Positions 1,985 through 10,340 of a stretch of DNA of 27,518 nucleotides are shown piece after piece (position 1 is the stretch's first letter; each line of letters starts with the position of its first letter). Position numbers and translations under genes: made by a program. A model generated the notes under the pieces. The model searched no databases. It had not been told where the DNA came from and saw only the letters and a program-made list of their open reading frames with translations. Origin of the DNA: a virus (Duplodnaviria > Caudoviricetes); IMG/VR virus record IMGVR_UViG_3300031896_000088, positions 1 through 27,518 of that record; one strand, 5' to 3'.

Positions 1985-2066
1985 GCAGCGCATGGCGCTG
2001 CCGCTGCCCGCATGTTTTCCACCTCCCTGGGACATGCGGGTTGGCGGGAACGCCAAGTGGTGTTCC
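1985..2066 (+). ncRNA. Candidate three-hairpin small RNA with an anti-SD loop
   Basis: Stems GCAGCGC/GCGCTGC (1985-2001), CCCGCATGT/ACATGCGGG (2007-2040) enclosing CCACCTCCCTGG, and GGAACGCC/GGTGTTCC (2047-2066). Confidence 0.45.
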
Positions 2067-2068
2067 AC

Positions 2069-2132
2069 AAAGTCCCTGGTAATCTTGGGGATTTTGACAG
2101 GGTGGTCTGATCAGGTATCATTTCAGACCACC
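2069..2132 (+). promoter_or_regulatory. Sigma70-type promoter with an upstream 22-bp box and an overlapping inverted repeat
   Basis: TTGACA 2094-2099, 16-bp spacer, TATCAT 2116-2121. Inverted repeat GGTGGTCTGA (2101-2110)/TCAGACCACC (2123-2132). Box AAAGTCCCTGGTAATCTTGGGG at 2069-2090. Confidence 0.7.
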
Positions 2133-2176
2133 AGACGCCGTGCCATGCGGCGAAACTCAGAGTGAAGGGAGCAACC

Positions 2177-3151: not shown

Positions 3152-3179
3152 TCGTAAACACCCACCAGGGAGGTCTAAC

Positions 3180-3398
3180 ATGGCGAGTGACGCGATGAAG
3201 CGTATCACCAGCCTTGCAGTACAAGAGCTCGTGAACGACTGGGTCGATCAGAAGATCACCGATGAGTGGGAATCGGAGCAACGTGAGCCGAAGCTCACCA
3301 TCGAGGTCAGCAACATCGACCACAACAACACCATGATCCGTGTCGCGGGTCTTGGTGCTCCTCGCTACTTCAACGTGAAGCTCAGCGAGGTGCTTTGA
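3180..3398 (+). CDS. Hypothetical protein (72 aa)
   Basis: Strong SD; TGATG coupling to the next gene. Confidence 0.8.
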   Translation: MASDAMKRITSLAVQELVNDWVDQKITDEWESEQREPKLTIEVSNIDHNNTMIRVAGLGAPRYFNVKLSEVL

Positions 3399-3903: not shown

Positions 3904-3985
3904 GTCGGCAGCCGTCATCAGGTACAGCCACGAGAAAGACACGCGCGTAGTTCCTGCGCGCAAGATCAGGTTGCAGCCCAGCTGA
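3836..3985 (+). CDS. Small hypothetical protein, SH3/Tudor-like beta pattern (49 aa)
   Basis: MYPLGTKILVNDKPAIYIY...AVIRY...TRVVPARKI. It overlaps the upstream gene by 68 nt and ends at a long hairpin. Confidence 0.55.
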   Translation: MYPLGTKILVNDKPAIYIYKSSESAAVIRYSHEKDTRVVPARKIRLQPS

Positions 3986-4051
3986 CCCTGACGGTCCTCT
4001 CCTATGCGGTGGGAGAGGGTCGTGAAGGTCAGGTAACAATAGGAGGTCCCA

Positions 4052-7924: not shown

Positions 7925-7934
7925 AACCTTTGTT

Positions 7935-8140
7935 CGCGCGCGTGCCCGAGCGCGCGCCCGTCAATAAGGATCGCGCATAGCGCGCTCGGGAGGCTTTCGC
8001 GTGCGCACGTCTCCGCGCGTATACGCGCGCTATAGAAAACGTCAAGTCTTAGAAGATCTAGATCTTACGCGCGCGTGTACGCGCTCGGGCGTACGCGCTC
8101 GCCTACTATGCGCGCGCCGCGAGAGCGCGCCCGCGCGAGG
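7935..8140. repeat. CpG-rich palindrome/short-repeat tract around an AT-rich core; candidate replication origin
   Basis: Palindromes CGCGCGTATACGCGCG (8014-8029), AAGATCTAGATCTT (8053-8066), ACGCGCGCGT (8067-8076) and CGTGCGCACG (8000-8009). CGCGCTCG occurs at 7981, 8080 and 8094, and inverted within 7945-7954. Confidence 0.7.
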
Positions 8141-8157
8141 GCAGCACAAAGATCCGT

Positions 8158-8208
8158 AAAGTCCCTGCTAATCTGGGGGTAGCTTTCCGTCTCGAGATCC
8201 GGTAGGGT
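8158..8208 (+). promoter_or_regulatory. Second copy of the 22-bp box with a downstream -10-like element
   Basis: AAAGTCCCTGCTAATCTGGGGG (8158-8179) is 20/22 identical to 2069-2090; TAGGGT at 8203-8208 fits the actinobacterial TAnnnT -10. Confidence 0.55.
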
Positions 8209-8260: not shown

Positions 8261-9442
8261 ATGGCAGGTCGGAGAACTCAGCAGCAGCGTGAGACGAATG
8301 TGAAGAAGGGGAGCTCGCGTTCGTCTCACGGTGCTGCTGACCCTCATCCTGCCAGCGGCACTGGTCGCAGGCGGCCAGGGAGGCAGGCTGACTCCTCAAT
8401 CACTCTCCCCGAGGGTGTCAGCCTGCCTCTTCTTCGTACAAGTGAGCGCACCACCTACAAGAAGTGCGAGTTTTTGTGGTGGTTGATATACGAGAATAAG
8501 CTCCAGCCGCAAACAGAGATGCCTGCGCTTAGGTTCGGCAGTCTCGTACACAAAGCCCTGGCAGCCTACTACGTGCCTGGCGTGAAGCGCGGCGTGCATC
8601 CAGCACGTGCCTTTGAGAAAGCCTACGAAGAGGACGCAAAGCACAACAGCGAGATCTTCGGCATGCGCGTTGACGAGGAAGATCGATGGGTCAATGCGCT
8701 AGAGCTCGGCGTGGCCATGCTTGAGAACTACGTGTCTGAGTATGGCAAGGACGACCGCTGGGAAGTCCTAGTCACCGAGATGCCATTCCGTGTGCTGGTA
8801 AGCCACGAGGTACGCATAGACGCATGGCCACACAGCAAGGTCGTGCCGTGGTTCTGGTACACCGGCGTGCTGGATGGTGTGTGGCGTGATCGAATGGACA
8901 AGACTCTGTGGATCCCTGATCACAAGACGACTGCCGGCATAGGCGACAGCAAGCTGAAGTATCTACAGGTTGACGACCAGGCGGGTGCGTATTGGTCATG
9001 GGGCGTGCAGTTCTTGCGCGAGCAGGGTATGCTGGGGCCCAAGCAGCAGCTTAATGGCATGATGTACAACTTCTTACGCAAAGCCCTGCCCGACGAACGG
9101 GCAAGCAAGATCGTCAATGGTAAGCGGGTGTACGTGAACCTTGATGGGAGCATCAGCAAGAAGCAGCCATCACCGTACTTCTTGCGACAGCCGATCTTTC
9201 GTGATGAGTTCGACCGCGCCGAAGCACAGCGGCGCTCACTCATTGACCAGCATCGGCTGGAACTACTGCGCTCAGGCGAGCTAGAGATCAGCAAAAATCC
9301 CGGCATGTTCACCTGTCCGACTTGTTCAATGCGGGATGTCTGCGAGCTACACGAGACGGGCAACGACTGGAAGACGTTCCTGAAGCAGACAACAAAGCCG
9401 TGGGATCCTTACGCGGAGCATGAGGTGTACGATGGCCGGTAG
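8261..9442 (+). CDS. PD-(D/E)XK exonuclease, RecB/Cas4-like with Fe-S-type cysteines
   Basis: TSERTTYKKC, FGSLVHKALA, GVLDGV...IPDHKT, QAGAY, C-terminal CPTCSMRDVC; SD AGGAGG. Confidence 0.88.
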   Translation: MAGRRTQQQRETNVKKGSSRSSHGAADPHPASGTGRRRPGRQADSSITLPEGVSLPLLRTSERTTYKKCEFLWWLIYENKLQPQTEMPALRFGSLVHKALAAYYVPGVKRGVHPARAFEKAYEEDAKHNSEIFGMRVDEEDRWVNALELGVAMLENYVSEYGKDDRWEVLVTEMPFRVLVSHEVRIDAWPHSKVVPWFWYTGVLDGVWRDRMDKTLWIPDHKTTAGIGDSKLKYLQVDDQAGAYWSWGVQFLREQGMLGPKQQLNGMMYNFLRKALPDERASKIVNGKRVYVNLDGSISKKQPSPYFLRQPIFRDEFDRAEAQRRSLIDQHRLELLRSGELEISKNPGMFTCPTCSMRDVCELHETGNDWKTFLKQTTKPWDPYAEHEVYDGR

Positions 9443-10340
9443 ACGCGCAGCCCCACAGCGTAGGGATGCACAGTCTAATCAGTACGACATTCTTGCCGGT
9501 ATCACGCCGGTAGGTACGGGTGACTGGATACGGCTAGGATTGTACAGCTATCCTGGTTGGGGCAAGACGTCCCTGGCGGGCACAGCCGCTGAGGCAGGAC
9601 GCACGCTTATCATACACAGTAGCCTCAGCCTGCTACCGTCACGCATTCTGAAGCTGCCGAATCTAGAGCATTTCTTGGCCGACAACTGGGAGCAGATGCT
9701 TGAGGTGCAGGAATACCTACGCATGAGCCAGCATCCGTACCTGTGGGTGTGGTGGGACTGCGTCAGTATTGATCAAGACGTGCTGCTGGATGATGTTTGG
9801 GACGCTACCGTGGCTGAGAAGCCTGCTCGCGCATACCAGATCGGCGCTGATGGCAAGCCTGGTAAGCCCAATTTGTCGCCAACCAGCGGCCTCGATCGCG
9901 GTGAGTACGGCCGCAACATGGAGCGGATACAGCAATGGATCCGACACATGGTCGGTGCAAACAGCTTTCACTTCGGGGTCACATTCCACCCGCATGAAGG
10001 GCAGCATCCTACCAATGATGAGGGTGGATCACTTCTCCGTCCGTATGTGCAGGGCAGAAACATGACGGAGAAGATCTGTGGGTACATGAACATGGTCGCA
10101 TTCTTGGAGGTGATTGAAAACGACGACAAAGATCTGAAGTGGCGTCGGCTGCATGTGGCGGAGAATAGCCGATTCTATGCCAAAGATCAGTACGACGCTT
10201 TCTTGCCCAAGGGCTACACGGACAACCCAACAATACCGAAGATCATGAGGGCAATCGAGGGTGCACGTGGTAAGCCACTGGGTGGGACATACCACACCAC
10301 CAACAACGGACCACGCCGTCGTGGTCGAAGGGAGCAATAG
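9432..10340 (+). CDS. AAA_24/Sak4-like P-loop ATPase (putative recombinase)
   Basis: Walker A LYSYPGWGKT, Walker B WVWWDCVS, EYG and AKDQ motifs; located between the exonuclease and the SSB-like gene. Confidence 0.8.
   Translation: MAGRRAAPQRRDAQSNQYDILAGITPVGTGDWIRLGLYSYPGWGKTSLAGTAAEAGRTLIIHSSLSLLPSRILKLPNLEHFLADNWEQMLEVQEYLRMSQHPYLWVWWDCVSIDQDVLLDDVWDATVAEKPARAYQIGADGKPGKPNLSPTSGLDRGEYGRNMERIQQWIRHMVGANSFHFGVTFHPHEGQHPTNDEGGSLLRPYVQGRNMTEKICGYMNMVAFLEVIENDDKDLKWRRLHVAENSRFYAKDQYDAFLPKGYTDNPTIPKIMRAIEGARGKPLGGTYHTTNNGPRRRGRREQ

Follow-up and report, generated by a model that had tools for sequence, protein, structure and literature searches.

A trailer hairpin of a phage operon presents a conserved loop complementary to a ribosome-site tag on the phage's own small genes: a candidate small RNA acting on a gene class

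A phage contig of 27,518 nucleotides (nt) (Caudoviricetes; IMG/VR record IMGVR_UViG_3300031896_000088), referred to here as the window, carries on its + strand, at positions 1985–2066, a structured RNA element that forms the 3′ trailer of the last gene of an operon (1730–1975) and exposes one conserved loop. The complement of this loop, a tag of the form CAGGGAG(G) (CAGGGAGG), stands at the ribosome sites of about a dozen of the phage's own genes. Given that so many genes carry the tag, one RNA would be likely to switch off the whole gene class, and on balance we lean towards the reading that the element is a 3′-end-derived small RNA (sRNA) that would pair with the tags and block their translation as a class.

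Folding of the + strand gives three abutting hairpins with a predicted stability of −50 kcal/mol (z-score −5.2), which none of 200 shuffled sequences matched; the minus strand folds less well (−43.3 kcal/mol, z-score −3.8). Hairpin P1 (1985–2001) begins 10 nt 3′ of the stop codon of the operon gene, which encodes an 81-residue protein of no family. P2 (2002–2046) is a long hairpin whose upper-stem pairing is kept across lineages and which presents the anti-tag segment (2021–2030), and P3 (2047–2066), delimited by folding, starts with GGA. Within the anti-tag segment, UCCC (2024–2027) is the open core and UCCCUG (2024–2029) an invariant hexamer. The sole fully open part of the 10-mer in this phage is CCUCCC (2022–2027), the remainder being held in a weak 3-base-pair (bp) cap, the opening of which takes about 3 kcal/mol.

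The element recurs across an uncultured phage family, in relatives found without reference to RNA. Searches with the helix-turn-helix (HTH) protein encoded downstream (2177–2710) returned 33 loci, of which 21 were examined; the other 12 comprise 11 repeats of examined contigs or elements and one locus, L046, that has no upstream DNA. A UCCCUG hairpin lies about 145–165 nt upstream of the HTH gene in all 18 loci with true homologs (43–100% identity), and in none of three weak matches (L049–L051, E-values 1e-4 to 1e-5), which we counted as non-homologs. These 18 loci represent 13 distinct elements; two more, in L016 and L125, were added by pattern, and both precede a diverged homolog of the HTH gene. 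In all 15 distinct elements the hexamer is unchanged, and the UCCC is unpaired with a probability of at least 0.97. A scan of viral contigs with a pattern blind to the loop gave 87 matches, which included no new family member; the hexamer was present in 6/6 family members and in 0/81 of the others. Other pattern scans of viral contigs returned 120 loci (17 of 64 parts covered), with L125 as the one new member, and 12 loci that were all known.

Around this constant loop the stems change. The first three pairs of P1 are invariant in 15/15 elements and pairs 4–6 are altered on both sides; the loops of P1 and P3 vary freely, and the P2 loop alone is conserved. Since MAFFT misaligned the loop in sets of mixed length, we counted pairs in fixed registers and on six equal-length sequences. 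Counted in fixed registers, 70 of 72 upper P2 pairs are canonical in nine lineages whose 5′ arms are 33% identical, and when arms are swapped only 4.6 of 8 positions pair. In the unfitted alignment of the six equal-length members, made up of relatives of the window sequence and not that sequence itself, 98.3% of cells are paired and 12 of 20 pairs are changed on both sides; slid registers reach at most 62%, and none of 500 shuffles matches the pairing, a comparison to be read with the tool's warning that on some alignment measures, though rarely on pair count, related sequences may outdo shuffles by their relatedness alone. The pooled elements contain eight G-U and no A-C pairs, which indicates the + strand, and the + strand folds better in 13/15. 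We conclude that the comparison provides strong evidence for a real RNA element with a selected loop.

What marks the tag is its position relative to genes. A second contig (G006, locus L300) is 99.98% identical to the window over 4.5 kilobases (kb) and extends the phage upstream. All of its 12 CAGGGAG sites lie 5–9 nt before start codons, 11 of them in the 6.3 kb upstream of the element and the twelfth downstream at 1.1 kb; shuffled versions of the same 7.7 kb hold 1.1 copies on average and 6 at most (200 shuffles). Counted across the window in full, the 7-mer does not exceed chance (8 versus 5.0 expected; 14 of 100 shuffles), so the signal comes from position and conservation. The candidate targets in the window, all on the + strand, are the ribosome sites at 232–239 (gene 246–500; 8 nt complementary to the loop), 561–569 (gene 574–906; 9 nt), 1718–1724 (gene 1730–1975; 7 nt, the closest upstream) and 3165–3174 (gene 3180–3398; 10 nt, the best predicted target, downstream of the element). 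The original prediction, made from the window alone, had named these four matches, all of which are exact, and had described three consecutive hairpins on the + strand, in a 3′-UTR-derived RNA, with a loop complementary to the phage's own ribosome sites. That description stands, and covariation and loop conservation, which it proposed as checks, are both seen in the relatives.

The same tag precedes small genes in every relative with enough DNA, and most relatives have a tagged start 1.0–1.9 kb downstream of the element. Leaders of tagged genes are 72–89% A+C. In a complete relative (G001), the tag stands before nine clustered small genes, AAGGGAGC at six replication-strand starts, that of the HTH gene included, and AAGGAGG/AAAGGAG at five structural-strand starts and one replication-strand start; the class layout of another relative, G002, resembles this. 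In the window, the HTH gene has the AAGGGAGC ribosome site of the replication-gene class at 2165–2172 (+ strand). With further copies at 10328–10335 and about 19771, this word defines another conserved class of ribosome site, which stands before genes for HTH, replication and HU proteins.

Predicted pairing energies separate the tags from canonical ribosome sites. As naked duplexes with the loop, tags reach −14 to −20 kcal/mol (−20.1 for the site at 3165), canonical sites −9 to −11 and AAGGGAGC −10.4, and two replication-region genes with AGGGAGG reach −14 and −15.5 kcal/mol. When opening costs are included, the 12 tags range from −5.2 to −10.6 kcal/mol, with the 3165 site again at the favourable end (−10.6), and 7 of 15 other starts are unable to pair with the whole UCCC. 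By these models, the loop would discriminate clearly between tags and canonical sites, and partially between tags and the sites of replication genes. The original prediction had also offered host translation as a target. This is unlikely, because canonical AGGAGG sites pair weakly with the loop, over 5–6 bp (−9 to −10 kcal/mol) compared with 7–10 bp for the tags.

Most tags are preceded by hairpins of one design. A lower stem leads to a G·G mismatch set between an A-U/U-A pair and a C-G pair, followed by three or four pairs, often a 2 × 2 internal loop, an upper hairpin and then the A/C-rich leader. A relaxed descriptor of this design is found before 58 of 84 tags in nine genomes (54 with a strict version), compared with 51 of 900 windows drawn at random and 6 of the 84 reverse complements; the rate ranges from 9/9 in G001 to 1/8 in G002. 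Matches in the window lie before the 561 tag (503–534) and the 1718 tag (1668–1705), both on the + strand. In 48 of 54 of these sister hairpins, the 3′ arm is able to form a P3-like GG(A/U) hairpin by refolding. None of the 58 sister loops contains UCCC, which makes them a natural control for the loop of the element. Two other hairpins deserve mention: a long one at 3980–4034 (−32 kcal/mol), before gene 4052, fits the G·G descriptor despite a canonical ribosome site, and upstream of the first tags in G006 several genes of this phage are preceded, in place of the G·G type, by a second one with a UACCC/GGGUA-like base and a 2 × 2 purine internal loop.

The element itself can adopt the G·G form. 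An extended fold of 1999–2049 (+ strand), with a U1999-A2049 pair, a G2000·G2048 mismatch and a C2001-G2047 pair, constitutes a predicted processing site; it is 3.5 kcal/mol less stable than the three-hairpin form in this phage and is preferred in 7 of the 15 elements. The intergenic hairpins have this stem too, so the element may be released from the early transcript by cutting. A promoter of its own was rejected, since no −10-like hexamer lies at a fixed distance 5′ of the 15 elements compared; the element would then derive from the operon transcript, by cutting of the G·G stem or by trimming. Among the 66 of 80 called G001 open reading frames (ORFs) that were scanned, none contains an RNase domain, and a host enzyme is assumed for this reason.

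These features suggest the following sequence of events. The block of small genes, which we infer to be the early region from the small size of its genes, from the long leader and the promoter-like site there, and because it lies ahead of the replication genes, would be transcribed into a single message that starts at a promoter some 7.5 kb upstream. The G·G stems would be cut by a nuclease of the host, with RNase III the most plausible candidate, to release single-gene messages, each with a 5′ hairpin, an A/C-rich leader and a tag. This is the weakest step, to which we commit ourselves only tentatively. Cutting of the last stem, or 3′ trimming, would leave a stable RNA of 40–85 nt, which would accumulate with a delay and seed on the tags through its UCCC, giving a timed negative feedback on early translation; these last two events are independent of which enzyme makes the cuts. 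In a bolder version that we consider possible but rather doubtful, temporal gene classes would be marked by distinct ribosome-site words, and host RNase III would free a guide hairpin, similar to a microRNA precursor, to act as a timer that silences exactly the early class.

A second sequence complementary to the tag is found at the other end of the block. In all eight genomes with a leader (G001–G008), the leader contains an anti-Shine–Dalgarno (anti-SD) sequence, ACCU(C/U)CCU(C/U)CC (1000–1012 of reversed G006). It lies 88–164 nt ahead of the first gene's ribosome site, and a cis pairing of the two, across long hairpins, is predicted (P 0.69–1.0, 8/8). The C-to-U form in G002 and G007 retains the pairing through G-U. 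This conserved pairing supports selection on RNA–RNA pairing with the tag. The surrounding leader in reversed G006 (about 380–1140) consists of some 750 nt of non-coding DNA, rich in GC and in hairpins, that separates a promoter-like site from the first gene; it has little similarity between relatives and no Rfam match, and may be a large non-coding RNA.

sRNAs with unpaired C-rich loops complementary to G-rich ribosome sites include RNAIII and RsaE of Staphylococcus aureus. In actinobacteria, the 6C RNA is an sRNA with C-rich loops, and it works without chaperones in Gram-positives of high GC content (PMC6486639). Like these RNAs, the element has an unpaired UCCC (15/15), here complementary to 12 tagged starts over 7–10 bp; unlike them, it is phage-borne, has one loop and is aimed at the phage's own tag. 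Rfam gave no gathering-level match, whether to RNAIII, RsaE, 6C, cuckoo or another family, in the window or in three leader-containing loci, and returned only local matches at chance level, the best for the element having an E-value of 0.087 and 19 bits against a cut-off of 40 bits. A search for similar DNA among 50,697 annotated phages found none. No RNA run is listed among the sequencing runs that hold this DNA, which has no bearing on expression.

Among phage RNAs, C4 is grouped with the CI RNA of phage P4. C4 of phages P1 and P7 is about 80 nt long, has three stem-loops, is processed from a longer transcript and occludes a phage ribosome site with a loop (PMC5320573). As described in that paper, it resembles the element in being a phage RNA with three stem-loops and a loop complementary to the phage's own ribosome site, but it uses two loops (a′ and b′) for immunity control, whereas the element has one loop, serial hairpins and many candidate targets; the C4 covariance models gave no match to the element. 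A comparable layout is that of the icaR 3′ untranslated region (UTR), which carries an anti-SD UCCCCUG in its 3′ trailer, has no promoter of its own and involves RNase III (PMC3868564). The element shares with it the position of the anti-SD, a nearly identical hexamer and the absence of an own promoter. The icaR 3′ UTR, in the account of that source, acts on its own single gene, whereas here about 12 genes are candidate targets and the tip of a covarying hairpin presents the motif. The sister hairpins in turn recall the five RNase III signals between the early genes of the T7 transcript (PMC3867540), where long irregular hairpins likewise recur from one small gene to the next in a single polycistronic block. 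They differ, so far as those signals are described, in their recurring G·G mismatch with a refolding 3′ arm and in having one member with a targeting loop, and their cleavage is predicted.

The tag itself resembles the start-associated sequence (SAS) seen in mycobacteriophages of cluster K and Microbacterium phages of cluster EF, an oriented, over-conserved ribosome-site motif of non-structural genes (PMC3203893, PMC7302621); papers of 2024 and 2025 still describe its role as unknown (PMC11373665, PMC12699233). Both lie in one orientation a few nt before starts, are conserved beyond the SD core and avoid structural genes; the tag is 8 rather than 13 nt long, and its contexts differ from both the cluster K and the cluster EF consensus as given in those sources. 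Pope et al. mention one reverse SAS in K1 phages, and their Figs S3–S4 list further reverse sites. We find that in Anaya, Niklas and Nutello a single reverse SAS lies in a hairpin loop (10 nt in Anaya) with an unpaired probability of 0.92–0.98. Across right-end stretches of 0.7–33 kb from 12 cluster K phages, the reverse SAS loop is exact in three, is a mismatched C/U loop with an unchanged SAS in two and is absent in seven; no anti-SAS loop was found in AnnaSerena (whole genome) or in the right arm of Ajin. A general rule that would couple SAS and antisense loop in all cluster K and EF phages was rejected, with 3/12 exact in cluster K, and these sequences point to a partial parallel. A non-coding region with several hairpins, close to the right end in cluster K genomes (L052 31760–31990, Anaya 59759–59989), matches 215 phage records, is often annotated as a hypothetical protein and includes an anti-SAS loop in some. 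Open-licence papers, supplements apart, yielded no description of a phage RNA that is antisense to a shared ribosome-site tag.

Several observations weigh against a free sRNA that acts on the tagged class. Tag energies with opening costs overlap those of the HTH gene at 2177 (−5.0 kcal/mol) and of the genes at 10340 (−6.9) and 14349 (−8.2), so the sparing of replication genes is not clean. Two tagged starts in G002 are on the opposite strand. The G·G descriptor fits just 5 of 11 tags in this phage and, as noted, one of eight in G002, and the count of G·G stems among the elements is partly circular, as the search pattern required those bases. The base after UCCCUG (U/G) complements the base before the tag (A/C) in 12 of 13 genomes with data, two of the 13 resting on one or two tags. 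This phage is the exception, with G in the loop and A in 11 of 12 tags, and the covariation amounts to two changes on the tree, for which a single origin is possible; as sequence evidence for loop–tag covariation it is weak.

The predicted cis pairing of the leader anti-tag also keeps a cis role live for the element. The loop might pair with tags within the unprocessed message, as an icaR-like 3′ UTR that damps nearby genes or steers processing, and there would be no free sRNA. Its lack of an own promoter, the nearest tag only 306 nt upstream and the report that an ectopic icaR 3′ UTR was inactive in trans (PMC3868564) all fit such a role. We nevertheless consider it unlikely, if credible: the loop is kept while the upstream gene and the distance to the tag (about 0.3–1.7 kb) vary between relatives, the best site (3165) lies downstream behind another promoter-like site, and cutting between genes would detach most tags from the element. 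It is improbable that the element is merely the last processing or stabilising hairpin, with a loop kept for a protein or tertiary contact and an incidental match to the tag. Its design is indeed common with the intergenic hairpins, the invariant core is only 6 nt long and any C-rich loop resembles an anti-SD, but the sister loops vary freely and lack UCCC, the UG of the hexamer matches the CA of the tag, which a generic anti-SD would not need, and the next loop base tracks the tag in all but one of the genomes compared.

Complementarity does not tell whether regulation would be negative or positive, and the function of SAS is still open (PMC11373665, PMC12699233), which leaves room for an RNA that protects, sorts or activates tagged messages, or that targets host messages with G-rich ribosome sites. 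We judge either quite improbable given that the pairing covers the SD, which is repressive in the icaR (PMC3868564) and C4 (PMC5320573) precedents as reported, and that canonical sites pair over merely 5–6 bp. Very little speaks for the tag as a protein site (CsrA-like, or a stoperator-like DNA site) with the hairpin as a minus-strand decoy bearing the tag in its loop. The minus strand does fold, and tags fit the CsrA/RsmE consensus in three genomes (9/12 in this phage, 8/9 and 9/10), but the same consensus fits 0–2 tags in each of six others, the excess of G-U over A-C pairs runs the other way, most of the tag on the minus strand is paired in L016, L022 and L125, and this phage has no minus-strand −10. 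A decoy of the CsrB/RsmZ type was rejected, as several GGA loops would be expected where there is a single one and the strand asymmetry favours +. The original prediction had also read the motif as an antisense copy of an SD plus start codon and, alternatively, as the ribosome site of a minus-strand 11-residue peptide. CAT does lie at 2011–2013, as claimed, and site and ATG are correctly spaced in the window. An ATG at that spacing occurs in only 1 of 15 elements, though, 7 of 15 lack any start codon within 25 nt, and the stems change freely with compensation; the peptide was rejected for want of a conserved ATG, and we give this reading almost no weight.

The window begins with small genes of no assigned function, followed on the + strand by helicase, nuclease, primase, DnaE, HU and ThyX genes, and carries contractile-tail genes on the minus strand. 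An actinobacterial host is likely, because the closest cultured DnaE proteins are from Microbacterium phages (43–44% identical); a search of genome contigs for a host genome or prophage found none. The HTH protein has a basic tail, matches phrog_686 (E-value 2.7e-6) and is always encoded downstream of the element; an atlas search gave leads only, at 0.80 or less. Its gene has a sigma-70-type promoter-like site at 2094–2121 (+ strand, 11/12 consensus), with comparable sites in 9 of 15 elements; lying 3′ of the element, this site cannot drive it. An inverted repeat at 2101–2132 overlaps the spacer and the −10 and is a candidate autoregulation operator, and different inverted repeats occupy this position in some relatives.

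Between element and promoter-like site lies a conserved motif, AAAGTCCCTGGTAAT (2069–2083, + strand), with a second copy at 8158–8172. Its general form, AAAGTCCCTG(G/C)TAAT, is found upstream of promoter-like sites on either strand in relatives, and G006 has two copies 30 bp apart before such a site. The motif is therefore likely to be a DNA site upstream of promoters and not part of the RNA, and it is a candidate binding site of a phage transcription regulator. Non-coding DNA at 7930–8150, 5′ of the nuclease gene, has CGCG-rich inverted repeats around an AT-rich core and is a candidate replication origin. A 26-bp hairpin at 8278–8340 lies inside the 5′ end of ORF 8261–9442, the true start of which may be further downstream.

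Early-gene shut-off by phages is known mostly through proteins, such as RegB and RegA of T4. If the favoured reading is correct, the phage would address a whole gene class by RNA, through a tag that it wrote itself; this would be an alternative that needs no protein and a compact, portable switch for many genes, and in the bolder version it would be an early shut-off by RNA alone and would explain at least some start-associated sequences. The family adds what a single genome could not: stem covariation, a control in the sister hairpins, distinct classes of ribosome site and a candidate for how the RNA is made. SAS can also be tested concretely on this basis, since some K1 phages, whose hosts are Mycobacterium smegmatis, have a like layout.
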